DNA of 11,978 bases from assembly GCA_041677685.1 (NCBI GenBank), contig JBAYPN010000022.1, positions 1 through 11,978 of the forward strand, in the 5' to 3' direction. This document shows positions 196 through 11,978 of this stretch, one piece after another. The DNA is from an archaeon (GTDB lineage Archaea > Iainarchaeota > Iainarchaeia > Iainarchaeales > CSSED10-239). The notes below the pieces were generated by a model, which was not told the origin of the DNA, made no database searches, and saw only the letters and a list, made by a program, of their open reading frames with translations. Numbering within the stretch: position 1 is the stretch's first letter; every line of letters begins with the position of its first letter. Made by a program: the position numbers and the translations under genes.

Positions 196-948
196 TTAAC
201 CTAACAAAAGTAATAATATTAACATAACTCCAATTCCTAAAAAAATACCTAACAATTGAATTAATGATTTATAAATATTTGTTTCTTTTTTTAATTCAGG
301 AATTAAATCAGCAGTAGCAATGTAAATAAAACCACCTGCAGTTATTGCTAAAATAATGTTTAAAAAAGTAGAACTAACTTGTCCAAGTAATAATGCAATA
401 ACAACTCCTACAATAGAAGTTAAAGCTGTTAAAAAATTCATAACTAATGCTTTTTTAATTGTAAAGCCTCCATGTATCAAAACTCCAAAATCACCTATTT
501 CTTGTGGAATTTCATGTAAAATTACAGCAATAGTTGTTGCTATCCCAATTGGAATTGAAACTAAATAAGTTCCACCAATAACTAATCCATCAATAAAGTT
601 ATGTAAAGCGTCCCCTACAAGATTCATATAAGCAAAAGGATGAGGATGCTTTTTTGAAGTTGGAACATGGCAGTGTCTCCAATGAATAAACTTTTCTAAA
701 ATAAAAAATATAATTAAACCAAAAATAAAAAATAGAGATAAAGATAAAGTAAATCCACCATCTTTAACTAACTCAGGTAAAATATGTAAAATTGCATCTC
801 CAATTAAAGCACCTGCTGAAAAGCTAATTGCAAATAGTAATATATTATTCATTTTTTTTATTTTAAAAAAAAGAGTTATGATTCCAATTAATGAAATTAA
901 ACTAACAATTAAAACACTAATTATTGAATATAACCAAACACTTAACAT
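196..948 (-). CDS. ZIP (Zrt/Irt-like, ZupT/GufA-type) divalent metal transporter
   Basis: ORF track gives 196..957, whose first codon is GTG. I use the first ATG at 948..946. Multi-pass hydrophobic protein with His-rich loop HWRHCHVPTSKKHPHP. It also has GDALHNFIDGLVIG and HEIPQEIGDFGVL, the metal-binding TM signatures of the ZIP family. Confidence 0.85.
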   Translation of the reverse strand: MLSVWLYSIISVLIVSLISLIGIITLFFKIKKMNNILLFAISFSAGALIGDAILHILPELVKDGGFTLSLSLFFIFGLIIFFILEKFIHWRHCHVPTSKKHPHPFAYMNLVGDALHNFIDGLVIGGTYLVSIPIGIATTIAVILHEIPQEIGDFGVLIHGGFTIKKALVMNFLTALTSIVGVVIALLLGQVSSTFLNIILAITAGGFIYIATADLIPELKKETNIYKSLIQLLGIFLGIGVMLILLLLLG

Positions 949-960
949 AAAAATCACAAG

Positions 961-1440
961 TTAATTTAAAATAAAAACAGATATTGTTAAAAATGTAGCA
1001 AATAAAACCCACAAAAAATAAGGTATTAATAAATATGCAGCAAGCTTATTAATTTTATAAAAATAAATTATTGAAAATAATATTAAAATTTCTAAAATTA
1101 TAATTTCAATACAGACTAATAATAATAAATTTAATTCAAAAAATAATAATGACCATAAAATATTAAATATTAATTGAATTGAAAATAACCAAATTGCAAT
1201 TTTTCTAAAGTCAGTATTTTTTTTAGATTTATTAATTAATATTAAGTAAAAAGAAATAATCATTAAAATAAATAAAATATTCCAAACAATTGGGAAAACA
1301 AAATTAGGTGGAACTAGACTAGGTAGATTAATTGTTTTATACCAGAAAGGTATATTTCTGCTAGTAAATATTGAACCTAAAAAAGCAGTTATTATAACCG
1401 ATATAAGAGAGATTATAAAATATTTTAAATTCTTTTTCAT
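961..1440 (-). CDS. TspO/MBR family (tryptophan-rich sensory protein-like) membrane protein
   Basis: ORF track gives 961..1449, which starts at TTG. The first ATG is at 1440..1438. FWYKTINLPSLVPPNFVFPIVWNILF fits the W-Y-x-x-L-x-x-P-x-x-x-P-P...VW signature of TspO. About five hydrophobic helices. Its stop lies 12 nt upstream of the ZIP ATG, so the two are probably co-transcribed. Confidence 0.7.
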   Translation of the reverse strand: MKKNLKYFIISLISVIITAFLGSIFTSRNIPFWYKTINLPSLVPPNFVFPIVWNILFILMIISFYLILINKSKKNTDFRKIAIWLFSIQLIFNILWSLLFFELNLLLLVCIEIIILEILILFSIIYFYKINKLAAYLLIPYFLWVLFATFLTISVFILN

Positions 1441-1587
1441 AATAAACAATTTATCTTATTAATTAATTTTTATATTATAATATTATATTTAAAAGATTAT
1501 ATAAACATTTGTTTTAAAATAATAAATCTATTTGTATATAAAATAATTTTAAAATAAAAACTTAGAAACTTTTAGCTATATTTTAAT

Positions 1588-1609
1588 CTAAAGTGAAAAG
1601 TGATCTTTC
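1588..1609 (+). repeat. Q repeat, copy 1 (CTAAAGTGAAAA + GAAA-N7-TTTC)
   Basis: Exact 12-mer at 1588..1599, in the divergent TspO/panD intergenic region. Confidence 0.8.
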
Positions 1610-1698
1610 TAAATAGTATATTATATTAATTTTAAAAAAAGATAAAATATATAAATAGAATATACATTAATATTAATATTAAAAAAAGAAAGATAATT

Positions 1699-2040
1699 AT
1701 GAAAGTAATACTGAAATCTAAAATACATATGGCTACTATTACAGAAGCCAAAAAAGAATATGTAGGAAGTATAACTATTGATAAAGAATTAATAGATAAA
1801 GTAGGGATTATAGAAGATGAAAAAGTTTTAATTACATCTTTTGATTCAAGAAATAGACTTGAAACAAATGTTATTCCTGGAGAAGCTGGTTCAGGTAAAA
1901 TTGAAATGAATGGTCCTACTGCTAATCTAATTAAAAAAGGTTAAAAAGTAGTAATTATGGCTTTTGAAATTACAGATAAACCTATTAAATCTAAAAAAAT
2001 ATTAGTAAATAAAAATAATAAATTTATTAAATATCTTTGA
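1699..2040 (+). pseudogene. panD: Pyruvoyl-dependent aspartate 1-decarboxylase (PanD) interrupted by a single in-frame TAA at 1942..1944
   Basis: The 81-aa ORF 1699..1944 carries KIHMATITEAKKEYVGSITID (Gly-Ser self-cleavage site) and GSGKIEMNG. Reading through TAA in the same frame gives KVVIMAFEITDKPIKSKKILVNKNNKFIKYL, ending at TGA 2038..2040. This matches the conserved PanD C-terminus; compare Bacillus subtilis ...GDKVIIISY...KVAVLNDQNKI as I recall it. The stop sits where the conserved Asp of G-D-x-V-I-I is expected. Confidence 0.8.
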
Positions 2041-2045
2041 TACTT

Positions 2046-2573
2046 ATGAAAATACATAAAATTGTTAAACCAAAAGGAAAATTATTAAATAAATTATTAG
2101 AAATTTCTGAATTAAATCACATACAAAATATAGAAAATAAATCAAAAGGATTTCTACTTAAAAAAGATTATAAAAAAATATTTTCTACTGCTACAAGAAT
2201 ATATGTTGATAATCCTAAAGAACCTACTTATGTAATTGCTTTTTTTAATAACTCAGATTTTAAAAAGCATATGGGTCAAATTCCAAAAAAAGTTATAGAA
2301 AATTATATACACGCATATGCGGTAATGAAAGATCCAAGAAAAAAAGGTAACTATTTAGATTTTGTTAAAGCTTATGTTGATGCTGAAAAAAAACATTCTC
2401 CAGGAATGTGGGTATTAATCTCTGAACATCCTGAAAAAAATAATAAATCTATTGAATTACATACTAATTTAGGATGGGAAAAGATTGGAGAACATAATGA
2501 ATTTATAAGTGATATAAATCAAAATGTTAAATGGGGAGTTTACATTTTAGATTATAATAAATTAAAAATATAA
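2046..2573 (+). CDS. GNAT-fold (acetyltransferase-like) protein
   Basis: ORF track gives 2037..2573 (TTG start). The first ATG is at 2046, 5 nt after the panD-frame TGA. VMKDPRKKGNYLDFVKAYVD is a degenerate R-x-x-G-x-G/A acetyl-CoA loop. NNKSIELHTNLGWEKIGE resembles the C-terminal N..S...Y.K.GF..G element of GNATs. Assignment is by motif only. Confidence 0.5.
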   Translation: MKIHKIVKPKGKLLNKLLEISELNHIQNIENKSKGFLLKKDYKKIFSTATRIYVDNPKEPTYVIAFFNNSDFKKHMGQIPKKVIENYIHAYAVMKDPRKKGNYLDFVKAYVDAEKKHSPGMWVLISEHPEKNNKSIELHTNLGWEKIGEHNEFISDINQNVKWGVYILDYNKLKI

Positions 2574-2632
2574 TATACTATTTAAATATAATTATTATCA
2601 GTTAAAATTTATGTAAGTTAAAAGCTTTCTTT

Positions 2633-2646
2633 TTAAGCTTCTGGCG
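2633..2646 (+). repeat. P repeat, copy A (TTAAGCTTCTGGCG)
   Basis: Exact 12-mer AAGCTTCTGGCG at 2635..2646. It lies between the convergent GNAT-like (+) and LD-carboxypeptidase (-) genes. A degenerate half copy, AAAGCTTTCT, sits just upstream at 2621..2630. Confidence 0.8.
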
Positions 2647-2721
2647 ATATTTTATTATAACTCAAACATTGGGTGTCAACTGACCAAAACCAGTTGTATT
2701 GAACTAAAATTAAATACTCTT

Positions 2722-3762
2722 TTAATTAACAAATATATTTTCAACTAATTTAACTGTTTTTTTAGAACAATCAATTTCTGTTTTAATCCCTAAAGGCAAA
2801 ATTAGTTGAGGATCAGTATGCCCTATATCAAAATTTGTAATTATTGGTAATTTATTATTTTTAAACTCGTCTCTAACTATTTTTAATATAACATTATTTA
2901 ATTCATCTTTTTCTTTTTTTGTAAAATCTCTTGCTCTTCCAAAAATAATACCAGATATTTTATCAAAAACACCTTGTAAACCATAATTTCTTAACATATA
3001 TTTTATTTGATCTAAAGAAGGTTTATCTTCTGAAGTTTCAAAAAAAAGAATTTTATTTTTAAAGAAATTTAATTTAGGAAAATATTTTGTAGATTTTGTA
3101 AATTCTAATACTTCTATGCACCCACCATATAATTCTCCAACAAATTTTCCTTTACCTTGTAAAAATATCCATCCATCATTTTTTATTTTATTTTTAACCT
3201 TACCAACATTTTCTTTTTTAGACCAATCAAGATATCCATTCACATATTTATTATATTCAAAATATTGATAACTAGAATTATTATTAAATAATATTTCTTT
3301 TATATGTTCTAAATATTTTTGTTCTAAATCATACATTTGAGAAAAACCAGCCATTATTGAAGGCCCATTAAATGTAATTAATCCCAATTGATTAAAATAA
3401 GTATTTAATGTAGCTGTATCTGAAAAACCCATAAATATTTTTGGATTATTTTTAATAATTGTTTCATCTAAATAAGGAAGTATTCTATTACAATCATTTC
3501 CACCAATAACAGTAAATATTGCTTTTATATTTTTATCTTTAAATGCATTATTAACATCATTAGCTCTAAATTTAGGATTATTACTTATAAAATCAAAAGA
3601 TTTTTTAGTTGTAGGATATTCAACTACTTTTAATCCTAAATCTAATAATACTTTTATTCCATTTTTATAAATATGAGGAAATACTTTACAAAGACCACTT
3701 GAAGGAGCAATTACAGCAACAGTATCGCCTACTTTTAACATTTCGAATTTTTTATATTTCAT
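2722..3762 (-). CDS. LD-carboxypeptidase, peptidase family S66 (LdcA / MccF-like)
   Basis: 346 aa with ATG at 3762. VAVIAPSSG near the N-terminus, GGNDCNRILPYLD, nucleophile motif GFSDTATL, FETSED, and the C-terminal GHTDPQLILPLG histidine motif. The size fits the longer MccF-like subgroup. Confidence 0.8.
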   Translation of the reverse strand: MKYKKFEMLKVGDTVAVIAPSSGLCKVFPHIYKNGIKVLLDLGLKVVEYPTTKKSFDFISNNPKFRANDVNNAFKDKNIKAIFTVIGGNDCNRILPYLDETIIKNNPKIFMGFSDTATLNTYFNQLGLITFNGPSIMAGFSQMYDLEQKYLEHIKEILFNNNSSYQYFEYNKYVNGYLDWSKKENVGKVKNKIKNDGWIFLQGKGKFVGELYGGCIEVLEFTKSTKYFPKLNFFKNKILFFETSEDKPSLDQIKYMLRNYGLQGVFDKISGIIFGRARDFTKKEKDELNNVILKIVRDEFKNNKLPIITNFDIGHTDPQLILPLGIKTEIDCSKKTVKLVENIFVN

Positions 3763-3848
3763 AATAATTAACCATATATTATAGATATAAAATGTTTTTA
3801 AATAAAATGGTTAAAAATCTTTTTAAAGTTTATGACAAAAATTCAAAT

Positions 3849-3871
3849 CTAAAGTGAAAAGTACTCATTTC
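3849..3871 (+). repeat. Q repeat, copy 2
   Basis: Exact 12-mer at 3849..3860, 4 nt beyond the stop of the RelE-like gene on the minus strand. GAAA (3856..3859) and TTTC (3868..3871) could pair. Confidence 0.8.
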
Positions 3872-4134
3872 ATATTACGATACCACTTTTCATAATCTTT
3901 ATGATTTTTAAAACAAATTACAAAAATTAAATGATCCTTCTCTATTTTATATATCATTCTTGAAGAATCAGTAACTTTTTCAACAAAATAAGGAAGACCA
4001 TACTTTAAATGCTTTCTAGAAATATCTTCTAGTTTCACTTTTTCAATTTTCTTAAAAAATCTTTTTCTAAGATCTATTGGTAAATTATCTAAGCTTTTAA
4101 AAAATATTGGAGTGTAACTTATTTTAAAACTCAA
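3865..4134 (-). CDS. RelE/ParE-superfamily type II toxin
   Basis: 89 aa. The first available start is TTG at 4134..4132, with an in-frame TGA just upstream, 10 nt after the upstream RHH gene. The pattern ISYTPIFFKSLDNLPIDLRKRFFKKIEKV ... SSRMIYKIEKDHLIFVICFKNHKDYE matches the RelE/ParE layout: an N-terminal helical hairpin, then R-x-I-Y-x-I..., then a beta-sheet ending in H-x-x-x-Y. Confidence 0.7.
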   Translation of the reverse strand: MSFKISYTPIFFKSLDNLPIDLRKRFFKKIEKVKLEDISRKHLKYGLPYFVEKVTDSSRMIYKIEKDHLIFVICFKNHKDYEKWYRNMK

Positions 4135-4144
4135 AAATAATCAC

Positions 4145-4411
4145 TTATATTAAATCTTTATATTTTTTTTTAAAATCTTCTTCAGAATATAATTTTTTTT
4201 TATTTTTTTTAATACCATTTAATTCTTTTTCAACAGCAATACCTACAAGACCTAACTCTTCTTTAGAAATATCATTATATAAATATTTCATACTTACCTC
4301 TAAAATACCAAGTCTTACAATTTCAGATTTTGTTTTAAAATAACCATCTTCTATTAATCTATCCATATATTCTTTTGGTTTGCCTTTTAATCTTACTAAA
4401 AATTCAGTCAT
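4145..4411 (-). CDS. Ribbon-helix-helix (CopG/Arc-like) antitoxin
   Basis: 88 aa, ATG at 4411, GTGAT SD-like 5 nt upstream. FLVRLKGKPKEYMDRLIEDGYFKTKSEIVRLGILE has the beta-strand/helix/helix pattern of RHH DNA binders. It lies immediately upstream of the RelE-like gene. Confidence 0.65.
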   Translation of the reverse strand: MTEFLVRLKGKPKEYMDRLIEDGYFKTKSEIVRLGILEVSMKYLYNDISKEELGLVGIAVEKELNGIKKNKKKLYSEEDFKKKYKDLI

Positions 4412-4451
4412 AAATAATCACATATAATTTATATATAAAAATAATTAAAAA

Positions 4452-4478
4452 GATATGTTTTTGATATGTTTTTGATAT
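4452..4478. promoter_or_regulatory. Tandem 11-bp direct repeat (GATATGTTTTT x2 plus GATAT); candidate operator of the RHH-RelE operon
   Basis: GATATGTTTTT occurs at 4452..4462 and 4463..4473, with a partial third copy at 4474..4478. It lies between P-B and a TTTATATA box that sits 20 nt upstream of the RHH ATG. The 11-bp period is about one helical turn, which suits RHH dimers. Confidence 0.4.
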
Positions 4479-4520
4479 TAAGCTTCTGGCGAGATTTAAA
4501 CCAAAAATGAAAAATATTCT
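4478..4520 (+). repeat. P repeat, copy B (TTAAGCTTCTGGCG plus about 30 nt of extended similarity to copy C)
   Basis: Exact 12-mer at 4480..4491. The following AGATTTAAACCAAAAATGAAAAATAT aligns to copy C GGAGTTAACCCAATATTTAAAAATAG at 19/26 positions by hand. It sits 67 nt upstream of the RHH start and about 47 nt past the GNAT stop. Confidence 0.8.
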
Positions 4521-4537
4521 TTTATGTTTTAATAGTT

Positions 4538-5050
4538 TTATTTAATATACTTAAAATCTAAATTACATTCAGCACTTAATTTTTTTCCTAATAATAATCC
4601 TTGATCTGTAAAAACCCACCCAAATAAAACTAAATTACTATTTTTATTTAAATAAAAACGAATCATATCTTTATATGTTTTTTTAATTATACCTTTTTTT
4701 CTATAGTTAGGATCTATATATGCAGCAGTAAGAAATAAAGTATCAAAATTATCCAAATTAATATTTTCATCAATATTTTTAACAAGTTCAGCTTCATTAA
4801 TCTTCTTACTTAAAAAATCATTCATTAATTTTTTAGAACAAGGTAATAAAGTTACAAATCCTATAATTTTATTTTTATCTTTAATAATACAAAAAGAAAA
4901 AGGAAATTGTTTTTGTAAATTATAAAATTCTAATTCAGTAGGATTATATTGATTAGGATCATCTTTAAATCCAAATTCTTTATCTGCAATTTCAAAAATA
5001 AAATTTAAATCAGTTAACATTATATCAGAATTATATAAATATTTTAACAT
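4538..5050 (-). CDS. GNAT family N-acetyltransferase
   Basis: ORF track gives 4538..5068 (TTG start). I use the first ATG at 5050..5048; the start remains uncertain. LFLTAAYIDPNYRKKGIIKKTYKDMIRF is a good beta4/alpha3 motif A (R-x-x-G-x-x). IIGFVTLLP is a typical preceding strand. Confidence 0.6.
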   Translation of the reverse strand: MLKYLYNSDIMLTDLNFIFEIADKEFGFKDDPNQYNPTELEFYNLQKQFPFSFCIIKDKNKIIGFVTLLPCSKKLMNDFLSKKINEAELVKNIDENINLDNFDTLFLTAAYIDPNYRKKGIIKKTYKDMIRFYLNKNSNLVLFGWVFTDQGLLLGKKLSAECNLDFKYIK

Positions 5051-5127
5051 AAATAAATTATAACACAAATATATTTAAATTTAAGTTTTAATAAAATTTA
5101 AACTAAAAATAAAAAATTACATTTTTT

Positions 5128-5502
5128 TCATTTATTATATTTTGCAAATTCTAACAAATTACCTTCTGTATCATAACATTGAAAACAACGATATGGATAA
5201 TCAGTAAAATCAAGATCTATAGGTTTATGTATTATTTTAACACCTAATTTCTTTATTTTAGAAAATATTAAATCAACATTGTCTGTCCAAAAAACAATAA
5301 CAGAATTATTCCCACAAATACGTTTATTTGATATAATTTTTGGATCAATTAAACCTAAATAAACATCTTTTCCTATATCAAAATCAGCCCAAGTATTATC
5401 CTCTCTATGTTTTACTTTACAAGATAATACATTTTCATAAAATTTAACTGCACGATCCATGTTTTTTACAGATAAATAAATGTGATCTAATTTAACTAAC
5501 AT
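5128..5502 (-). CDS. VOC (glyoxalase / bleomycin-resistance / dioxygenase fold) family protein
   Basis: 124 aa, ATG at 5502. LDHIYLSVKNMDRAVKFYENVL is the canonical first beta-alpha-beta of the VOC fold. The C-terminal CYDTEGNLLEF is typical of the last strands. Confidence 0.7.
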   Translation of the reverse strand: MLVKLDHIYLSVKNMDRAVKFYENVLSCKVKHREDNTWADFDIGKDVYLGLIDPKIISNKRICGNNSVIVFWTDNVDLIFSKIKKLGVKIIHKPIDLDFTDYPYRCFQCYDTEGNLLEFAKYNK

Positions 5503-5647
5503 AATAATCTAATTCAATAACCATTCTATAAAGTACAAATCATTTAGCCCCATATAAATTAAATAATATATAATTAAGTTGACAACAAATTTATAAACGG
5601 TTACATCTACTAATTTTTAAAAAATCAGCTACAAAAGAGCTTCTACC

Positions 5648-5670
5648 CTAAAGTGAAAAACGCTCCTTTT
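5648..5670 (+). repeat. Q repeat, copy 3
   Basis: Exact 12-mer at 5648..5659, 9 nt beyond the stop of 5669..6004 (-). GAAA (5655..5658) and TTTT (5667..5670) could pair, with a G-U wobble. Confidence 0.8.
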
Positions 5671-6004
5671 ATTTTTTAGAACTATGTTCTTTATTACTTC
5701 TAATCATAAAGTCATATTTTAAGTATAGTAAAACATCTTCTTTCACACCAGGATATTTATTAAAATTTTTGTTAACTATATCTATTACTTGTATTTCAGA
5801 TAATTTTTTTTTATTAATTTCTCTAGCTAAAAGAACAGTACTTTTAAATAATTTAGAATCAGGTCCTTTTAAAATTTCTTTTCCAATTCTATTTCTTTCA
5901 GCAGTTAATTCAGATAAATTACTTAAATTTACAGATTTTCTAATAGTAGGCTTAGGTTTTTTTGATATAGATTTATTAAATAATTTTGATAATGTTTTTT
6001 TCAA
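5669..6004 (-). CDS. Hypothetical lysine-rich protein (111 aa)
   Basis: TTG start at 6004..6002, preceded by GAGGTGAT SD with about a 3-4 nt spacer (rev-comp of ~6008..6015). No family recognised. Confidence 0.55.
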   Translation of the reverse strand: MKKTLSKLFNKSISKKPKPTIRKSVNLSNLSELTAERNRIGKEILKGPDSKLFKSTVLLAREINKKKLSEIQVIDIVNKNFNKYPGVKEDVLLYLKYDFMIRSNKEHSSKK

Positions 6005-6030
6005 ATTATCACCTCTTAATTATATATTAA

Positions 6031-6189
6031 TTACAAACATTTATATTGTTTTGTAAAAGTTAAGCTTCTGGCGGGAGTTAACCCAATATTTAAAAATAGA
6101 ATATAAACATCCCCCCTCCCAGATTCGGACATTGGGGAGGTACGAGTTTGTTGTTCGTTGTTAGAAGTTAGTAGATACTTTCCTTTCAT
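6031..6189 (-). CDS. Candidate 52-aa small ORF spanning the P-C repeat and a GC hairpin
   Basis: Below the ORF-track size cutoff. ATG at 6189..6187, with AAGGAG (rev-comp of 6199..6204) 9 nt upstream. Hand translation: MKGKYLLTSNNEQQTRTSPMSESGRGDVYILFLNIGLTPARSLTFTKQYKCL. TAA stop at 6033..6031. No homology recognised, so it may be fortuitous. Confidence 0.3.
   Translation of the reverse strand: MKGKYLLTSNNEQQTRTSPMSESGRGDVYILFLNIGLTPARSLTFTKQYKCL
6060..6102 (+). repeat. P repeat, copy C
   Basis: Exact 12-mer at 6062..6073. It lies 56 nt upstream of the TTG start of 5669..6004 (-) and marks the left edge of the higher-GC block. Confidence 0.8.
6115..6140. other. GC-rich hairpin CCTCCC-N14-GGGAGG
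   Basis: CCTCCC at 6115..6120 and GGGAGG at 6135..6140, conspicuous in very AT-rich DNA. It lies about 140 nt downstream of the 390-aa gene stop and inside the candidate 52-aa ORF. Neither strand has a clean U-tract. Confidence 0.4.
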
Positions 6190-6244
6190 TCTTACCAACT
6201 CCTTTTAGTTTATATTAATATTCTGATTGAAAGCTTTTATAAAA

Positions 6245-6268
6245 GTGTAGCTTGTGTAGAGAGTGTAT
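6245..6268. repeat. Three direct GTGTA(G/T) hexamers at 9-nt spacing
   Basis: GTGTAG at 6245..6250, GTGTAG at 6254..6259 and GTGTAT at 6263..6268. They lie between the 390-aa gene stop and a TTTATAAAA box upstream of the 52-aa ORF (minus-strand sense). Confidence 0.5.
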
Positions 6269-6279
6269 ACAAACTCAAG

Positions 6280-7452
6280 TTATCTGCACACTACATTTAT
6301 TATTTTTTGAATATCAGCATATTTTTCATAATCGCAAATTAATTTCCCCTTATTAAATTCAGAAGAATTACTAAACCATAAATTAACCACACCTTTAGAA
6401 TAACACGCACAAATTAAAGTATACAGTTGATTAGATTGATAATATAATTCTGATTTCTTACGATAAAGTCTATCAACATCTTTATCTCCACTGGTAAACT
6501 CTAAAGCAATAGGGGGATGAACTGTTTTTAATTTACACATATCTTCTAATTCTTCATTACTTCTTGATGCTTTATTTATATATATTTTATATTGGTCTAT
6601 ATCTGAAGTAAAATAATCATATAATTTGTGTTTGTCTTTAAGTAAAGCAATTATTTCGATTAATTTCCCCCTTATACTTTTTTTAAGTTCTATTTCTTTA
6701 TTATATTCATATATTTTAGTAGATAATTTTGCTCTTTCTTCTTCTAATTTGAGTAGCTTATTTTGAGAAGGTGTGTTTTTGGAGGTGTCATAATAAAATG
6801 TATTACTACATTCTCCACGCAATTTATTTACTTGCTCATCTATTTTGTTGTATTCTTTAATATCTGGGCATTCTTCTAAGTATATAGATAAAGGAGCATA
6901 ATTTGTGGTATAGAATAAATCTATTTTTGTTATTAGTTTTTCTTTTTTTCCTTCTGTAATTGCAGGAAATATACTTTTGGAATCTTGTTCTTTAATATTA
7001 TCACTTAAAGTATCCAAAACCAATTTTATAAAATCAATAGGATATTTCTGATTTAATAAATCAAATATATCATAAAATTCATTTAAATTTAAAGTTCTAT
7101 GCAAAATTATATTTTGCGCTAAATCAAATCTATTTTTTTTAATTAAATTTTTAGCATAAAGTATTTGATTTTCATCAAATGCTCGTTTATAGTAATAAAT
7201 CATATCATTTCCATTTACCAGAATATCTAAATCAAAAGCTTTCTTGAATTTAGTTGCTTTCAATTTATCAAATATGTCCTTATCTGTTGCCTTAAACCAA
7301 CGTTCAATTATATCTCTCGCACGTTCTTCTGAAATATCATTAGTGCTATTAAACTTTGAGATTATCAAATCAGATAAATCATTTTTCGTACAATAAGTCT
7401 TTTCTTTTATTGTTTTTTCAATAAAAGGGTATATTTCTTCTTTTGCATCCAT
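6280..7452 (-). CDS. Hypothetical 390-aa protein, divergent from the rightward operon
   Basis: ORF track gives 6280..7461 (GTG). The ATG at 7452..7450 has AAGGTGG 5 nt upstream. The N-terminus (TKNDLSDLIISKF...ISEERARDIIERWF) could be helix-turn-helix-like. The central region is coiled-coil-like (KLLKLEEERAKLSTKIYEYNKEIELKK). No catalytic motif recognised. Confidence 0.7.
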   Translation of the reverse strand: MDAKEEIYPFIEKTIKEKTYCTKNDLSDLIISKFNSTNDISEERARDIIERWFKATDKDIFDKLKATKFKKAFDLDILVNGNDMIYYYKRAFDENQILYAKNLIKKNRFDLAQNIILHRTLNLNEFYDIFDLLNQKYPIDFIKLVLDTLSDNIKEQDSKSIFPAITEGKKEKLITKIDLFYTTNYAPLSIYLEECPDIKEYNKIDEQVNKLRGECSNTFYYDTSKNTPSQNKLLKLEEERAKLSTKIYEYNKEIELKKSIRGKLIEIIALLKDKHKLYDYFTSDIDQYKIYINKASRSNEELEDMCKLKTVHPPIALEFTSGDKDVDRLYRKKSELYYQSNQLYTLICACYSKGVVNLWFSNSSEFNKGKLICDYEKYADIQKIINVVCR

Positions 7453-7660
7453 ACATTCCACCTTTATTTGCTTCCAAACTACTATAAAAGTCTGGAGTAT
7501 TTTTATTATTATTAAATAATTACGACCCTAAATGCTTATAAATAGTGCGGTTTATTGGAGCGATAAACCACTCCTATGCTGTTTAAATAAGCAGTTAAAA
7601 ATCGTTTAGTGCAATATTATGTAATAATACCAGAAAACAACAAAAAGGAGAAGAAGAAAT
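7453..7660. promoter_or_regulatory. Divergent control region between the 390-aa gene and the rightward operon
   Basis: 208-bp intergenic region with SD sites at both ends. It contains CTTATAAATAG, the inverted repeat GGTTTAT (7549..7555) / ATAAACC (7563..7569), an overlapping GGAG...CTCC pairing, and a CTGTTT-AAAT-AAGCAG hairpin. Confidence 0.5.
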
Positions 7661-7897
7661 ATGTCAGAAAGAAAAACGATAGAAGGCACAGTGTTATCAA
7701 TATCTAACAAAGTAAATCCAAAGGGGGTATCTTATTCAATATATAAGGTTTCTACTCTCGAAGGGAAAGAGTTGGACTTGTTTCTGTGGAATAATAATCT
7801 CAGATTATTAAATAGACTTTGTAGATTTGAAATAGAATCCAACATTAAAGATGACAAACAATACAATACAATCATAACAATGGAGGCGAAAGAATGA
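7661..7897 (+). CDS. Small OB-fold-like protein, possible ssDNA-binding
   Basis: ATG at 7661 with AGGAG upstream. IEGTVLSISNKVNPKGVSYSIYKVSTLEGKELDLFLWNNN...RFEIESNIKDDKQYNTI follows the I-x-G-x-V...G...-hydrophobic-...G-x-x-hydrophobic-x-x-x-W pattern of RPA/anticodon-binding-type OB folds. The function is inferred. Confidence 0.6.
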   Translation: MSERKTIEGTVLSISNKVNPKGVSYSIYKVSTLEGKELDLFLWNNNLRLLNRLCRFEIESNIKDDKQYNTIITMEAKE

Positions 7898-8169
7898 AGG
7901 TATATGAACTGATGGATACGACACCGTATCCTAAACTTAAACAAGGTAACACTGTTTTTGAATTAAAGACACAAAGTGATTTCGAACAGGCAATTTTGGA
8001 TAATGATGGAGAGATTTTTGTTGAAGATACTAAATGTTATCTTCTAACTAAAAATAATAGGTGTTATGTATTGTTTTACAAAGATAAAACGCCAATAGTA
8101 AGAATGTTGAAAGATAGAATGGATGGAGGAAACAACAATGACAACAATAGAAGAAATATTAGCAAGTAA
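7894..8169 (+). CDS. Hypothetical protein (91 aa)
   Basis: ATG at 7894 overlaps the upstream TGA (ATGA). GGAGG lies 7 nt upstream at 7882..7886. No family recognised. Confidence 0.55.
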   Translation: MKVYELMDTTPYPKLKQGNTVFELKTQSDFEQAILDNDGEIFVEDTKCYLLTKNNRCYVLFYKDKTPIVRMLKDRMDGGNNNDNNRRNISK

Positions 8170-9700
8170 TCCTACTCAATATTCTAATTTATCTATGGGA
8201 ATCAAAGATGGTTTATTCTATTATGGTAAAATGGTTGAACATAAAGGGCAACTATTAGAGATGATTGTCTTGTCTAATAAACAACTATTGACTAACTATA
8301 GTAGTCTAAACACAAAAACAGATAAAAGACCTAATGAAATAAATGATTGGGGAATATTTTATCAAGATTTACCTATAAACATTTCTAACAATGACTGGTC
8401 TAATGATAGTATAACTAAGTTTATTAGCTCTAATAATAGACTAATGAACAAAAAAGAAGTTTACAATAGAATAAAAGAACAGATAACCAAATATATGGAT
8501 TTATATGATGAAAGAATTAGTTCTATGGTTGCTTGTTGGTGTATGGGAACTTATATCTATAATCTGTTTTCAGGATATGGGTATATACTACTTACAAGTC
8601 AAAAGGATTCAGGGAAGAGTAAATTACTAAAAATCATTGGACAACTTTCAAGAAATAGTATCTATCTAAGTTCTCCAAGCGAGTCTGTTTTATTTAGAAT
8701 GATAAATGGAAATAGACCTACTTTACTTCTTGATGATTTTGAGACATTAAAGAATGAAGAAAGGACACACTATATCTTGCAAATACTTAAGATTGGTATA
8801 GATGAAGATGGGGCAATTCCAAGAAATGAAAAGTATAAGGATACCTTTGTTCCAAAAAACTATAATTGTTTTTGCCCTAAAGCATTAACAAATACTTGCT
8901 CTCTTGACCCAATTACCATAAGTCGTTGTATAACTATTAATCTACTTCCAACAAATACAGAAAAAGGTAAACTAAAACCAAATAAAAGAGATTTAATTTG
9001 GCAAGAAATCAGAGATGATTTACATATATTGATTATGGAAAATTATCAAGAAATAATTGATATATACAATAATGAATCTTTTGGAGATTTTAATTCAAGG
9101 CAATTAGATACTACTAAAGGATTATTATCTATTGCAAAGTTTATTGATGATTCAGTTTATCAAGAAGTTTCAGAATTTCTTAAAGAATCTTTTAAGGATA
9201 GAGACCTTCAAGACCTCAGTTCAGATTGGGAATACTTATTATTTAAGCAACTTTATGAAAAAGTGCCAAGCCCAAGATGGTGTTCTATAAAAGAAATAAA
9301 TGAGTGGTTAAAAGAAGTTGCAATTCCTACAGACTACAATAAAGGATTTAATCAATATATTGGTTTTGTTTTGAGTAAATTATCTTCATTATTTCCAAAA
9401 CAAAGACATAATGATGGAATTATGTATTTGATATCTCCAAAAAGTGTCCAAGAATATATGAGTTTAAAGAAGTATCCTTGCACCTTAGAGGGTTCACAGG
9501 ATACACAACCTACACTTGATTTCAAAGATGAACCATTTAGAGAATTAAAAAATGAAATTATGGATACTTGTGTAAATTGTAATCAAAGAACCTACGTTAA
9601 ATATACTTCTAAAGTTGTAAAGGGCAGAAACATTTGTGAAGACTGTGTAAAGAGTGAAGCCAAAAGGAAGGGTAAAGAATTATTAGATAGTATGTATTGA
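8138..9700 (+). CDS. P-loop NTPase of mobile-element replication type (DUF3631-like / SF3-helicase-like core) with C-terminal zinc ribbon
   Basis: ORF track starts at 8123. The ATG at 8138 has GGAGG (8125..8129) 8 nt upstream. Walker A is LLTSQKDSGKSKLL and Walker B is PTLLLDDFETL. They are followed by CPKALTNT (motif-C/sensor-like Asn) and ITISRCITINL (Arg). From memory, this order and spacing resemble DUF3631 proteins of prophages and ICEs. The C-terminus has CVNC-x18-CEDC. Confidence 0.6.
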   Translation: MTTIEEILASNPTQYSNLSMGIKDGLFYYGKMVEHKGQLLEMIVLSNKQLLTNYSSLNTKTDKRPNEINDWGIFYQDLPINISNNDWSNDSITKFISSNNRLMNKKEVYNRIKEQITKYMDLYDERISSMVACWCMGTYIYNLFSGYGYILLTSQKDSGKSKLLKIIGQLSRNSIYLSSPSESVLFRMINGNRPTLLLDDFETLKNEERTHYILQILKIGIDEDGAIPRNEKYKDTFVPKNYNCFCPKALTNTCSLDPITISRCITINLLPTNTEKGKLKPNKRDLIWQEIRDDLHILIMENYQEIIDIYNNESFGDFNSRQLDTTKGLLSIAKFIDDSVYQEVSEFLKESFKDRDLQDLSSDWEYLLFKQLYEKVPSPRWCSIKEINEWLKEVAIPTDYNKGFNQYIGFVLSKLSSLFPKQRHNDGIMYLISPKSVQEYMSLKKYPCTLEGSQDTQPTLDFKDEPFRELKNEIMDTCVNCNQRTYVKYTSKVVKGRNICEDCVKSEAKRKGKELLDSMY

Positions 9701-9729
9701 TTTTTCAAAAACGAACTTAGGAGATTATT

Positions 9730-10164
9730 ATGGCAAATACAACAAAAGGTAAAGAAATATCGAAAATGAATGCTGTAAAGAATGGATTATATCTAAGATT
9801 TGCAGATTTTTTCCCTTGTAATCTATGTATTAATAGAAATAAATGTAAAGATTTTGTTCCTGGAGGTTCTTGTTCAATTGATTCTGAATTATTTAATCAA
9901 TTAGTAACTACTGAAGTAGATGAACTAAAAGTTTTAGACCAATTGATTAATTACAATATAGTTAGACTATCAAGAGCAACAGAACAAGCAAGAGAAAGAC
10001 CAGACCACATTGAATTAAGTAGGATATCTGCAGAAATAAGAAACCTTATTCAAGCAAGATTCATAATAAAACGAAGAATAGAAGGTGAAAAAGAAGATGC
10101 ACGAATTAAAGTATTGCAACCATTGTCCGATTCGAGCCAATTGCATTTATTTCAAGAAAAATAG
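9730..10164 (+). CDS. Cys4-motif protein A (C-x2-C-x5-C-x8-C); function unknown, possibly DNA-binding or small-terminase-like
   Basis: ATG at 9730 with GGAG upstream. Contains CNLCINRNKCKDFVPGGSC. The N-terminal NAVKNGLY resembles the N-A-x-K-H-G-x-Y repeats I recall from some phage small-terminase-like proteins; this is weak. The last ~23 codons overlap the next gene. Confidence 0.55.
   Translation: MANTTKGKEISKMNAVKNGLYLRFADFFPCNLCINRNKCKDFVPGGSCSIDSELFNQLVTTEVDELKVLDQLINYNIVRLSRATEQARERPDHIELSRISAEIRNLIQARFIIKRRIEGEKEDARIKVLQPLSDSSQLHLFQEK
10081..10107 (+). repeat. Gene-junction repeat, copy 1 (GAAGGTGAAAAAGAAGATGCACGAATT)
   Basis: 24/27 identical to 10373..10399. It contains the SD (AGGTGA) and ATG of the downstream gene while encoding EGEKEDARI in the upstream gene. 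Confidence 0.75.
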
Positions 10165-10402
10165 TTTTTGTGAAAAAGAACAATTAATCACAGAATTTGT
10201 ATATGGTATTGATGATGCTTATAGGAAAAAAGGAGGTTTTCTTTTAGATATTGGAAGAACAGAAGAAGAAAACAATAAATCAGAGTTTTATAAAAATATA
10301 AGAAAAGAATTTGTTGAAATCTATAAAGATTTAGCAGATGAAGAAGAAGATAGTGAAGACAATGAAGAGACTGAAGGTGAAACAGAAGATGCAAGACTTT
10401 AA
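10097..10402 (+). CDS. Cys4-motif protein B (paralog of A) with strongly acidic C-terminal tail
   Basis: ORF track starts at GTG 10085. The ATG at 10097 has AGGTGA 9 nt upstream. CNHCPIRANCIYFKKNSFC has the same C-N-x-C-x-x-R-x-x-C-x8-C pattern as protein A. The tail is DLADEEEDSEDNEETEGETEDARL. Confidence 0.55.
   Translation: MHELKYCNHCPIRANCIYFKKNSFCEKEQLITEFVYGIDDAYRKKGGFLLDIGRTEEENNKSEFYKNIRKEFVEIYKDLADEEEDSEDNEETEGETEDARL
10373..10399 (+). repeat. Gene-junction repeat, copy 2 (GAAGGTGAAACAGAAGATGCAAGACTT)
   Basis: It encodes EGETEDARL at the end of Cys4 protein B and carries the SD and ATG (10389) of the four-helix-bundle gene at the same offset as copy 1. Confidence 0.75.
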
Positions 10403-10739
10403 AAAATTAAAAATCTGGCAATTAGGAAGAGAATTTACTAAAGACATCTATGATATCACAGAACACTTCCCAAAACACGAATTTCATTCGATGACCAATC
10501 AATTAAGGAGAGCTTCTTACTCTATTCCAAGCAACATTGCCGAAGGTTGCGGGAAAAATAGTCAAAAAGAATTAGGAAGATATCTATCCATTGTTAATGG
10601 TTCAATAAAAGAATGCGAATGTTTCTTGATTCTTTCAAAAGACTTAGAATATATAACTAACAAAGAATTTAATGAATTAAATCAAAAGTTAGAAATTATT
10701 GCAAAGATGTGTAATAAATTATTAATGAAATTAAATTAA
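10389..10739 (+). CDS. Four-helix-bundle protein (23S rRNA intervening-sequence protein / Avd-like family)
   Basis: ORF track starts at 10338. I prefer the ATG at 10389, which has AGGTGA 9 nt upstream and the same junction sequence as at 10097. FKKLKIWQLGREFTKDIYDITEHFPKHEFHSMTNQLRRASYSIPSNIAEGCGK...LSIVNGSIKECECFLILSKDLEYI carries the family hallmarks (W-Q-x-A..., Q-L-x-R-A-x-x-S-I-x-x-N-I-A-E-G, S-x-x-E). Confidence 0.8.
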   Translation: MQDFKKLKIWQLGREFTKDIYDITEHFPKHEFHSMTNQLRRASYSIPSNIAEGCGKNSQKELGRYLSIVNGSIKECECFLILSKDLEYITNKEFNELNQKLEIIAKMCNKLLMKLN

Positions 10740-11092
10740 CTATTTACATATTGTTTTATACAGGTATATTCCGCTTTTATTTTTCCAAATTCTTCATCTG
10801 CATTTTTCCAATCTGGTGGGCAATATCGATAGGATTCACTTATGGTTCTTAAATGCCTATATGCCTTATAGATTTGGTTAGCATTTTTAGAAATAAATTC
10901 CTCTCTTTCTGAATGTGTTCCTGGTTTTTGTACTTTTGGAAATTTGTTAAGTACAAAGAAATTTACCCAATGAACTGCAGAATAAAAATAAATAATTGAC
11001 GACCAAGCTTTACAATTAGATTCAGAATCTTTTGCGATTGTTTCGTTGTGTTTTGCAAGTTCTGAAAAGTCATACTTATCCAATATAATCAC
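10736..11092 (-). CDS. Hypothetical all-alpha protein; weak HEPN-like features
   Basis: Last gene of a three-gene minus-strand operon. The track start GTG at 11092 overlaps the upstream TAG by 1 nt. An alternative TTG at 11083 has GTGAT 4 nt upstream. YFYSAVHWVNFF, GTHSEREEF and LRTISESYRYCPPD loosely recall the helix/T-H-x-L/...R-Y-P layout of HEPN domains, but there is no canonical R-x4-6-H. Its stop overlaps the stop of the convergent four-helix-bundle gene (TTAA at 10736..10739). Confidence 0.55.
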   Translation of the reverse strand: MIILDKYDFSELAKHNETIAKDSESNCKAWSSIIYFYSAVHWVNFFVLNKFPKVQKPGTHSEREEFISKNANQIYKAYRHLRTISESYRYCPPDWKNADEEFGKIKAEYTCIKQYVNS

Positions 11093-11463
11093 TATTTAAT
11101 TAATGTCTTTGCATTTTCAGGGATTTGTTGCATAAAATAAGAAGTATCTGAAAAAACATTAAATTCAAACATTATTTTTTCATCTTTAAATTTATCTCTT
11201 AATTCTAATTCTAAATCATAAATTTTATCTCTACTATCATAATCATTAGGGTCAATTAATGTCCAAAATTTAATTACTTTTCTATCATTCATAACATACA
11301 ACTTTTTTACAAATGGTAATGAACTAACGGAATGGAAGTAAAATTTAATTGCATATACCTTTGTAATAATAGTAATTGGATTATATAATTGTTTATTTAT
11401 TCCAATATAACACTCATCTATTAATCCCAAAGTATTTGTGTTTGCTTGTTTATTAATATACAT
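11092..11463 (-). CDS. Hypothetical protein (123 aa)
   Basis: ATG at 11463, 7 nt after the upstream stop. No family recognised. VIKFWTLIDPNDYDSRDKIYDLELELRDKF...IMFEFNVF has a strand-loop-helix-strand look, and no more can be said. Confidence 0.5.
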   Translation of the reverse strand: MYINKQANTNTLGLIDECYIGINKQLYNPITIITKVYAIKFYFHSVSSLPFVKKLYVMNDRKVIKFWTLIDPNDYDSRDKIYDLELELRDKFKDEKIMFEFNVFSDTSYFMQQIPENAKTLIK

Positions 11464-11470
11464 ATAATCC

Positions 11471-11836
11471 CTACTTTGTTTGTGTTTTCAAATCTAATGT
11501 TTTTATTTGCTCAGAAATCTTTGCTAAATTTTCGGATGCTAATTTAAGTTTATCTGCATAATCTTTTTTCTCAGATAATGATAAATTTAATAAATTCTTA
11601 TCAATTGTTGCCATCTTTAAATTATAAATTAAATCTTTATATATCTCTGAAAGTTCAGGAGAGTCATTTTTTATTAATGAAATTAATAATTCTTCATCAT
11701 TTAATACTTCGTTCATTTTCTTAAGTTTATCTGCATCATTAGATTCTAAAGTATAGACCTCATTAATGAAACCACTAATTATCTTTAACAATTTAGAATA
11801 GGCTATAATAAAATCAATAAGTATTTCTTTGTCCAT
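11471..11836 (-). CDS. Hypothetical helical / coiled-coil protein (121 aa)
   Basis: ATG at 11836. First gene of the minus-strand trio. Heptad-like, K/E/L-rich. No family recognised. Confidence 0.5.
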   Translation of the reverse strand: MDKEILIDFIIAYSKLLKIISGFINEVYTLESNDADKLKKMNEVLNDEELLISLIKNDSPELSEIYKDLIYNLKMATIDKNLLNLSLSEKKDYADKLKLASENLAKISEQIKTLDLKTQTK

Positions 11837-11978
11837 ATGTAATCTATATAGTTATTAAATAGGTTAATAAATATAACTATTTTTAAAGGCAATTTGTTTC
11901 AACTATATATATATTATATATAGAAAAATATATAAATAGAAAATTAATACACTATAGTTTACTTTCATAACTTTGAGT

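Follow-up and report, generated by a model that had tools for sequence, protein, structure and literature searches.

How DPANN archaea, with their tiny genomes and their dependence on hosts, gain and shuffle accessory genes is little known. The question raised here, by an 11,978-nt stretch of DNA from such an archaeon (contig JBAYPN010000022.1 of assembly GCA_041677685.1; the whole stretch is called the window), is what two short repeats, P and Q, mark by alternating through the AT-rich left half. A sequence-only reading of the window had proposed that small mobile gene cassettes, of a type it could not name, have P and Q as their recombination sites or element ends, or else that the two repeats form a paired set of operator- and terminator-like elements. 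Here, we find that each of the six boundaries of a gene island carries a single composite site, about 42 nt long, of which P and Q form the two halves, and that the P half is a piece of a tRNA-Thr(GGT) gene, running from the T-loop to the 3′ end. These findings support the cassette proposal and put at least a partial name to the type: the units are bounded by tRNA-derived attachment (att) sites.

Exact copies of P (AAGCTTCTGGCG) start at 2635, 4480, and 6062 (P-A, P-B, and P-C) and exact copies of Q (CTAAAGTGAAAA) at 1588, 3849, and 5648 (Q1, Q2, and Q3). All six lie on the plus strand; the positions, shared orientation, and strict Q,P,Q,P,Q,P order given earlier were all reproduced. The surrounding DNA has a G+C content of 16–25%. 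With up to two mismatches allowed, P returned the same three matches, against 0.12 expected, and none of 200 dinucleotide-preserving shuffles reached three, which bears out the claim that the copies are not due to chance. Exact copies of Q were absent from shuffled sequence; with two mismatches, Q showed no enrichment (7 seen versus 5.75 expected), and one of its loose matches, at 4502, is a true decayed Q half. P extends beyond the 12-mer, to a 14-mer (TTAAGCTTCTGGCG) in general and to about 25 nt in copies B and C. The sequence-only reading had put the further similarity of these two copies at about 30 nt.

The genes in the left half of the window lie for the most part on the minus strand, and on that strand the composite site reads as a Q half (GAGCGYTTTTCACTTTWGG), a 7-nt T-loop (TTCAATT), and a P half (CCCGCCAGAAGCT). 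The three parts of the P half, CCCGC-CAGAAGC-T, are in tRNA-Thr(GGT) the 3′ strand of the T-stem, the 3′ strand of the acceptor stem, and the discriminator base; the reverse complement of P runs from the end of the T-stem through the acceptor 3′ strand and the discriminator into the trailer, of which it takes in three bases. The route to this identity led through loci (numbered with the prefix L) that hold homologues of the RelE-like toxin of the island. A tRNA-Thr(GGT) gene called by ARAGORN in L256 ends with the exact 14-mer CGCCAGAAGCTTAA, its 3′ end reading ...GCGGGTTCAATTCCCGCCAGAAGCT (also written ...GGTCGCGGGTTCAATTCCCGCCAGAAGCT) followed by TAA. Sites in L265 and L323 match the tRNA-Thr end (GGTTCAATTCCCGCCAGAAGCT) at 22 of 22 positions, and the window does so at 14 of 14. 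Compared with the tRNA-Thr 23-mer from T-loop to trailer, P halves in the window show 20 (S1), 20 (S3), 18, 15 (S4), and 13 (S6) identities, where about 6 are expected by chance (boundaries S1–S6 are listed in Table 1).

What appears to be a spacer between Q and P is the T-loop in decay, TTCAATT having become GTTAACT, TTTAAAT, and the like. P and Q are not two types of boundary. Every boundary holds a Q-type and a P-type half, and what alternates is preservation: boundaries with an exact P carry a decayed Q, and those with an exact Q carry a decayed P. The Q half, which is not tRNA sequence, is kept across unrelated cassettes and genomes. Displaced 3′ fragments of tRNA genes are the standard scars of integration by tyrosine integrases (PMC4383910; PMC9897764), and the T-loop is one of three usual crossover subsites (Islander, PMC4383910).

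An independent profile was built from eight sites of the other genome, L265, only, and was searched against about 230 kb of archaeal loci. On the minus strand of the window it matched S3 (E 5.6e-6) and S4 (E 0.015) over their full length, S1 at 6097–6061 (E 0.004), the Q half of S2 (E 0.16), and, weakly, S6 (E 3.3). The only other matches with E <0.1 in the 230 kb were the same sites in loci of the same species and the tRNA-Thr gene, which the profile aligned from the T-loop onward only. The seed profile also found the Q half of S2 (E 0.14–0.16 for the two profiles) and gave E 1.9e-5 for S6, which is itself in the seed.

The boundaries differ in detail. The P-half relic of S2 was recognised by eye as seven contiguous bases, AGAAGCT, and the mismatches of S4 to an intact site in L323 are nearly all changes from G/C to A/T. 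The P half of S5 was found by profile, and its long spacer holds a hairpin (CAACTG..CAGTTG). This long-spacer design is also present in L006 and L323, and positions 2627–2693 of the window are 78% identical to L323 2359–2425. The insert between the Q and P halves in these sites is about 45–50 nt (window 2655–2702, L006 12184–12223, and L323 2355–2400); it includes a hairpin that is comparatively rich in G+C and, ahead of the P half, a conserved CAATGGTTTGA..AAAT segment. Folding of the six boundaries as single-stranded DNA, on both strands, gave structures no better than those of shuffles, with z between -0.3 and +0.6 for four of them; the only notable fold, at S5 (z = -2.3), came from unrelated small hairpins. 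An attC-like folded hairpin was rejected on these grounds, z being about 0 for most boundaries on both strands, and the mini-hairpins earlier suspected beside Q were thermodynamically undistinguished.

Table 1. Boundaries, cassettes, and neighbouring features of the window
Feature	Positions	Strand	Description
S1	6060–6101	-	Native tRNA-Tyr trailer (6083–6101), then T-loop relic GTTAACT, then exact P half (14-mer of P-C, CGCCAGAAGCTTAA, 6060–6073); attL-type, head of array
S2	5636–5665	-	Exact Q half GAGCGTTTTTCACTTTAGG (Q3), followed directly by acceptor-strand relic GTAGAAGCT; T-loop and T-stem deleted
S3	4478–4519	-	Decayed Q half GAATATTTTTCATTTTTGG (14/19, 4501–4519), relic TTTAAAT, exact P half (14-mer of P-B, 4478–4491)
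S4	3824–3866	-	Exact Q half (Q2), T-loop relic, decayed P half TTGAATTTTTGTCATAAACTTTA (3824–3846); attR-type hybrid
S5	2633–2721	-	Decayed Q half (2703–2721), spacer of about 48 nt, exact P half (14-mer of P-A, 2633–2646); long-spacer variant
S6	1564–1605	-	Exact Q half (Q1), TTAAAAT at T-loop position, weak P-type relic; attR-type junction with native TspO upstream region
Cassette E1	5669–6004	-	111-aa orphan open reading frame (ORF); own upstream region 6005–6059
Older cassette	4538–5502	-	VOC/glyoxalase 5128–5502 (PF00903); GNAT acetyltransferase 4538–5068 (PF00583)
Cassette E2	3865–4477	-	Operator-like repeats about 4455–4476; RHH antitoxin 4145–4411; RelE-like toxin 3865–4134
Older cassette	2722–3762	-	LD-carboxypeptidase, Peptidase_S66 (PF02016, PF17676)
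Cassette E3	1606–2632	+	Cargo inverted relative to site orientation: panD with TAA 1699–2033; 175/178-aa GNAT-like ORF 2037–2573
TspO and ZIP	196–1449	-	Native, distal to island; TspO 961–1449, ZIP 196–957 (Pfam)
Displaced tRNA-Tyr(GTA) 3′ fragment	6109–6138	-	attR of 13-kb element; empty locus L001 versus occupied L011
13-kb integrative element, right-hand part	6139–11978		Outside the P/Q array; L011 2656–15727

The stretch from about 1564 to 6101 is an island set between tRNA-Tyr and TspO in a DPANN host. We regard it as inserted because the genes for DUF2666, tRNA-Tyr, and TspO are contiguous in relatives: where DUF2666 is 60–61% identical (L251, L252, and L254), the order is DUF2666, tRNA-Tyr, TspO, with nothing between them. 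In relatives with a DUF2666 that is 69–75% identical, other genes come after the tRNA. P occurs in none of the DUF2666 relatives compared. The T-rich stretch before P-C is native tRNA trailer, since ATTCTATTTTTAAA is common to the window and the island-free L254. An archaeal 16S rRNA gene is found 4.5 kb away from the locus, and NCBI gives the name 'Candidatus ainarchaeum sp.' to a homologue of the neighbouring DUF2666 protein, which places the host among the DPANN archaea. In about 30 kb of the same genome the sites are restricted to the island, and neither repeat stands beside syntenic core genes; some 40 other genes have no Q motif at their 3′ ends, and Q is therefore no general terminator. 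Exact protein matches led to contigs of about 99.9% identity from several metagenomes and three NCBI metagenome-assembled genomes (MAGs).

The cassettes are modular units of 0.4–1.1 kb that are present in some genomes, absent from others, and found between other neighbours elsewhere; most of them carry their own upstream region. The modules are not collinear in relatives. A related strain (L010) lacks positions 1541–2646 of the window, that is, E3 together with Q1 and P-A, with the left break at 2646/2647, on the outer edge of P-A. When E3 is cut out in silico at the T-loop position, the product aligns with L010, with indels on the TspO side. Another locus, L006, diverges from the window exactly at S6, that is, at Q1, and continues after E3 with another composite site and another neighbour.

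The RHH-RelE module, E2, recurs in L323 (228–895) with 93.9% DNA identity over 668 nt (window 4513–3846), and the homology ends inside the sites. Both flanking sites are complete in L323, and the upstream ATATC repeats are included. The neighbours of E2 are a 64-aa gene and an AAA_14/DUF4143 ATPase gene in L323 versus the GNAT and S66 genes in the window; a cassette of L265 is 78.6% identical to E2. The AAA_14 cassette is itself found at three positions, namely right after tRNA-Tyr in L012, after E2 in L323, and in L265, with 84.7% identity between the L323 and L265 copies. The copy in L012 and L013, which come from a different host, is more distant; it has the same P half and the same 5′ hairpin and is the first cassette after tRNA-Tyr. 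Nine sites occur within 11 kb in L265, L266, and L268, in a single orientation and one after each unit. These units hold CN_hydrolase; HicBA; two small ORFs; RHH-RelE-TM2-Zn ribbon; AAA_14; and a 410-aa ORF with an IS4-like transposase; MetRS comes after the last site. The last of these units (L265 8098–10884) holds the IS4-like DDE transposase (PF01609) and the 410-aa ORF, for which no family was detected, on the opposite strand.

The second host (L012) also has a diverged tRNA-type fragment, GTTTAACGCCCGCTAGAAACTTAC, at 12085–12125, about 40 nt after tRNA-Tyr. Because this position is similar to that of the array in the window, it suggests that the spot downstream of tRNA-Tyr is a recurrent primary docking site. 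An assembly chimera is an unlikely cause of the arrangements described above, since sites share no identical stretch longer than about 25 nt, which is below the length of the assembly k-mer; the k141 prefix of the ENA contig names points to k = 141.

The best overall explanation, which we consider probable, combines the composite att site, the cassette island, and serial site-specific integration with crossover at the T-loop. A circularised cassette would carry a joined Q–T-loop–P site, which a trans-acting tyrosine recombinase would recombine with a resident site by exchanging strands within the T-loop or beside it. The product of each insertion would be two hybrids, an upstream one of resident Q and incoming P (attL-like) and a downstream one of incoming Q and resident P (attR-like). 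Three recent insertions, E1 (orf111), E2 (RHH-RelE), and E3 (panD/GNAT-like), would have entered an older, decayed array, one at each of the junctions in the order tRNA trailer, VOC + GNAT, S66, TspO. The strict alternation of Q and P is explained in this way, because three such insertions give hybrids of exact and decayed halves; random placing of three intact P halves and three intact Q halves would produce the alternation with a chance of 1 in 400. Crossover at the T-loop is supported by the repeat TAAAATAT, which flanks E3 at both junctions at the T-loop position, and by TTTAAAT and TTTGAAT on the two sides of E2; for E1 the evidence is poor. The explanation would further imply that a tRNA-Thr(GGT) of the host, or some tRNA of the lineage, ends in CGCCAGAAGCT.

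Several points weigh against this explanation. There is no tRNA-Thr gene at the head of the array, which abuts the tRNA-Tyr trailer, or in the approximately 30 kb around it. No PF00589 or other recombinase was detected in or beside either array (Pfam, ±10 kb, and the L265 array), nor did PHROGs and NCBIfam return one for the orphan ORFs; the sole PF00589 gene belongs to a 13-kb element with a different att site. The Q half is not tRNA sequence, and its TTTWGG is unlike the T-stem 5′ strand GCGGG, so that a real tRNA-Thr gene may be a poor partner. S2 lacks the T-loop, the P relic of S6 is weak, and indels obscure where the deletion in L010 ends on the right. The division into young and old hybrids is based on one array, the data are metagenomic contigs of three or four genomes, and homologous recombination between short repeats could do the shuffling instead.

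It is conceivable, although we would lean against it, that this DPANN lineage has a dedicated, integron-like cassette system, with a recombinase encoded elsewhere, a site of about 42 nt, and single-cassette circles that re-enter any site. Such a recombinase might reside on the chromosome, a plasmid, or a virus; the cassettes would be self-expressed, and the spot after tRNA-Tyr would serve as the primary dock. The cargo would comprise toxin–antitoxin (TA) pairs, acetyltransferases, ATPases, and bacterial imports such as the S66 peptidase, and the conserved non-tRNA Q half would mark the system off from ordinary tRNA integration. The missing tRNA-Thr, the missing recombinase, the non-tRNA Q half, and the plain fold together argue against classing the array as a plain tRNA-targeted island, and they rule out a canonical integron.

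Serial integration of full-size elements that later decayed could also have left such a locus. The P halves would then be att scars, Q an arm of the element family, and the modules leftovers without mobility of their own, and modules shared between genomes would reflect common descent with loss or homologous recombination. Fragments of tRNA genes are routine in integration (PMC9897764; PMC4383910), and tandem accretion with decayed, integrase-less members is known (PMC5704250; tycheposon islands). The arrays lack an integrase, several site halves are decayed, and L323 and L265 share the partial order 64 aa, RHH-RelE, AAA_14. We nevertheless think this origin unlikely. Both ends are exact in each of three modules of 0.4–1.1 kb, an outcome that random deletion would not favour, and E2 stands at 94% identity between unrelated neighbours in two genomes, where its homology stops within the sites. 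A density of nine sites in 11 kb, each after a unit of one to four genes, is much higher than decayed elements of 10–20 kb would leave. The wide conservation of the Q half also speaks against it, and among the Pfam results and ORFs tested there are no fragments of an integrase pseudogene.

That the 42-nt unit spreads by itself into spacers, as a tRNA-derived miniature repeat resembling a miniature inverted-repeat transposable element (MITE) or a repetitive extragenic palindrome (REP), with the genes as bystanders, is very improbable. The unit is short and intergenic, keeps a consensus, and is multi-copy in at least three genomes. Its copies, however, are clustered (6 in 4.5 kb and 0 in the other ~25 kb; 9 in 11 kb) and share one orientation. 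Terminal inverted repeats (7/14 match) and flanking target duplications are both lacking, and what varies between strains is whole gene modules rather than the 42-nt unit alone.

Barely credible is the alternative offered by the sequence-only reading, in which nothing is mobile, Q is a terminator, and P is an upstream operator or promoter of co-regulated modules. Q halves do contain T-runs and lie 0–9 nt past stop codons (the distances of 4 and 9 nt given for Q2 and Q3 were confirmed), P-B and P-C lie 68 and 57 nt upstream of start codons (67 and 56 in the sequence-only reading, which was right within about 1 nt), and the ATATC boxes upstream of RHH-RelE are kept next to P. The tRNA-Thr origin of P contradicts this alternative as far as P is concerned, and P-A faces the 3′ end of a convergent gene and is upstream of no start. 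In addition, the motifs are missing at about 40 other genes, and the presence and neighbours of modules change exactly at the sites; Q may still also act as a terminator. A canonical integron, or a cluster of attC sites without an integrase (CALIN), as reported in Archaea, including DPANN MAGs (PMC9668308), can practically be set aside: the cassettes of one to few genes, with one site each, one orientation, and TA and acetyltransferase cargo, fit the architecture, but against it stand the lack of an IntI-type integrase, boundary folds mostly at shuffle level, no R″/R′ boxes (RYYYAAC...GTTRRRY) conserved across sites on reading by eye, a tRNA-derived site, and at least one cassette with its own operator/promoter region.

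Other identities for the site were tried and rejected. Terminal inverted repeats of an insertion sequence (IS) or MITE would require P to resemble the reverse complement of Q, which it does at 6–7 of 14 positions by hand; the repeats flanking the cassettes lie inside the site at the T-loop position, are imperfect, and are not an IS-type target-site duplication. A dif-like 11-6-11 site, suspected from TTTGGATATAA in L006, was rejected, as was a pdif-like Xer/dif module (a 28-bp site with two inverted 11-bp arms, a fixed 6-bp spacer, and alternating orientation), because the box spacing is variable (about 11–18 nt from TTTWG to CCAGA, hand count); all sites have one orientation. The idea that Q is the anticodon arm of a tRNA, or that the site is an entire tRNA half, failed on length, with 5–6 nt where 14–15 are needed, and the host tRNA-Glu gave no match as a source of the site. 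Rfam returned nothing for L323 and L324. Searches of viral contigs gave random singletons among the matches listed for the P 14-mer, and no matches, or chance matches inside phage genes, for three longer site patterns.

The gene content of the modules given by the sequence-only reading was confirmed by Pfam for ZIP, TspO, panD with its in-frame TAA, Peptidase_S66, GNAT, and glyoxalase/VOC. The Pfam search gave no match for RHH, RelE, orf111, or the 178-aa protein; the RelE label comes from two close homologues (91% and 78% identical) that are named RelE at JGI. The 111-aa ORF of E1 has no match in Pfam, PHROG, or NCBIfam. Just downstream of P-B, upstream of the RHH-RelE genes, the direct repeat AAAACATATC occurs twice (4455–4476). 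It is kept in three genomes (L265 at about 5060–5085, GATATC..GATATC, and L323 at about 265–290) and is probably the operator of the antitoxin gene. The closest relatives of the S66 protein (55–59% identity) come from bacteria of the candidate phyla radiation (CPR; Saccharibacteria and Magasanikbacteria) and one uncultured archaeon. Since the nearest relatives are mainly CPR bacteria, this suggests a cross-domain import that is now carried as a cassette; none of the S66 homologues in GTDB genomes has composite sites nearby. The panD gene of E3 (PF02261, Pfam E 3.5e-32) has its in-frame TAA at 1942–1944, where GD.VII is expected, and the length of the called ORF varies among contigs (71, 81, or 94 aa); it is probably a decaying gene.

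Beyond the island, the window contains an 18-nt tandem repeat of three to four copies (34–114) within the first ~28 codons of an ABC-transporter ATPase gene (start 118, minus strand), which encodes a repeated KxxNxI hexapeptide. Rfam gave only a sub-threshold miRNA match in the window, and a phage collection gave no match to it.

On its other side, the array adjoins an integrative element of roughly 13 kb that is inserted in the 3′ end of tRNA-Tyr; L003, L007, and L011 have it, and L001, L002, L004, L005, and L006 do not. The element also sits at the same tRNA in another host (L012 and L013). It encodes a Phage_integrase beside the intact tRNA-Tyr, a restriction–modification pair (an N6_N4 methyltransferase and a ResIII/RE_endonuc protein), DUF5655, a DUF5906-like protein of 525 aa, and a 23S_rRNA_IVP/bAvd-like protein. 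Its att core, CGAATCTGGGAGGGGGGAT (6109–6127), starts in the T-loop of tRNA-Tyr. P-C lies 36 nt past the end of tRNA-Tyr, in host DNA outside this core, and P was rejected as the att site of the element, the core being the tRNA-Tyr end and not P. The element is a precedent, at the same locus, for integration between the T-loop and the 3′ end of a tRNA gene. The tRNA-Tyr(GTA) gene itself (L001 7534–7655) carries an intron, about 37 nt long, after the anticodon and is missed by ARAGORN and, at the gathering score, by Rfam; an intron-less orthologue in L244 is called by ARAGORN. A scan of metagenome contigs with the tRNA-Tyr 3′ end returned one relative, which lacks the site.

In the arrays described here, a short tRNA-derived site marks off units of one or two genes that turn up again in other arrays and other genomes. 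Should a trans-acting recombinase move them, this would be a second, independent route to an integron-like cassette economy, starting from the ordinary toolkit of tRNA integration, and the 42-nt site would be a searchable signature of flexible-gene hot spots in uncultured archaea. For annotation, such scars are too short for the calling of tRNA fragments and, if not recognised, would pass for unexplained repeats.

Among known systems, She et al. (2001) reportedly described archaeal segments bordered by direct repeats of partial tRNA genes, formed by gene capture with SSV-type integrases. That capture is said to work by splitting of the integrase gene, which leaves int(N) and int(C) pieces on either side of the element; such pieces were not seen here.

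Islands targeted to tRNA genes, as catalogued by Islander, resemble the array in having displaced 3′ fragments of tRNA genes (tDNA) in direct orientation at module ends, a crossover subsite at the T-loop or T-acceptor, an island beside a tRNA gene, and breaks at att repeats. They differ from it in that the array has no cognate tRNA-Thr at its head and consists of modules of 0.4–1.1 kb without an integrase. Tandems of at least three occur only 4 times in the 3919 Islander islands (PMC4383910), whereas the arrays described here have 6–9 sites each, every one with a non-tRNA Q half.

Similar in behaviour are the cis-mobilizable elements (CIMEs) of the ICESt1 type in Streptococcus, integrase-less units with attL and attR. 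E1, E2, and E3 each have an exact P and an exact Q and no recombinase. In CIME accretion, incoming elements enter a resident att site and build tandem composites (PMC5704250). However, CIMEs are bacterial, kilobases long, derived by decay from integrative and conjugative or integrative and mobilizable elements (ICEs or IMEs), few per locus, and served by a known helper integrase; here, no cognate helper integrase was identified in the approximately 30 kb of the genome covered. The tycheposon islands of Prochlorococcus are flexible islands by tRNA genes, with partial tRNAs between elements and scattered, which have been read as serial integrations pushing older cargo inwards (10.1101/2020.12.28.424599). 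Tycheposons differ in having their own tyrosine recombinase and replication genes, a partial tRNA that matches the tRNA of the island, a cyanobacterial host, and larger modules.

Integrons (PMC9668308) share with the array compact cassettes, a site at the 3′ end of each cassette, one orientation, TA and acetyltransferase cargo, the same cassette in different arrays, and an attI-like first site by a fixed landmark. The array departs from them in having no IntI, no folded attC, and no R/L boxes, in its tRNA-derived site, and in that at least some cassettes have their own promoter or operator. The array thus has an integron-like layout and accretion-like behaviour; it is not an integron, and it is built from the scars of tRNA integration.

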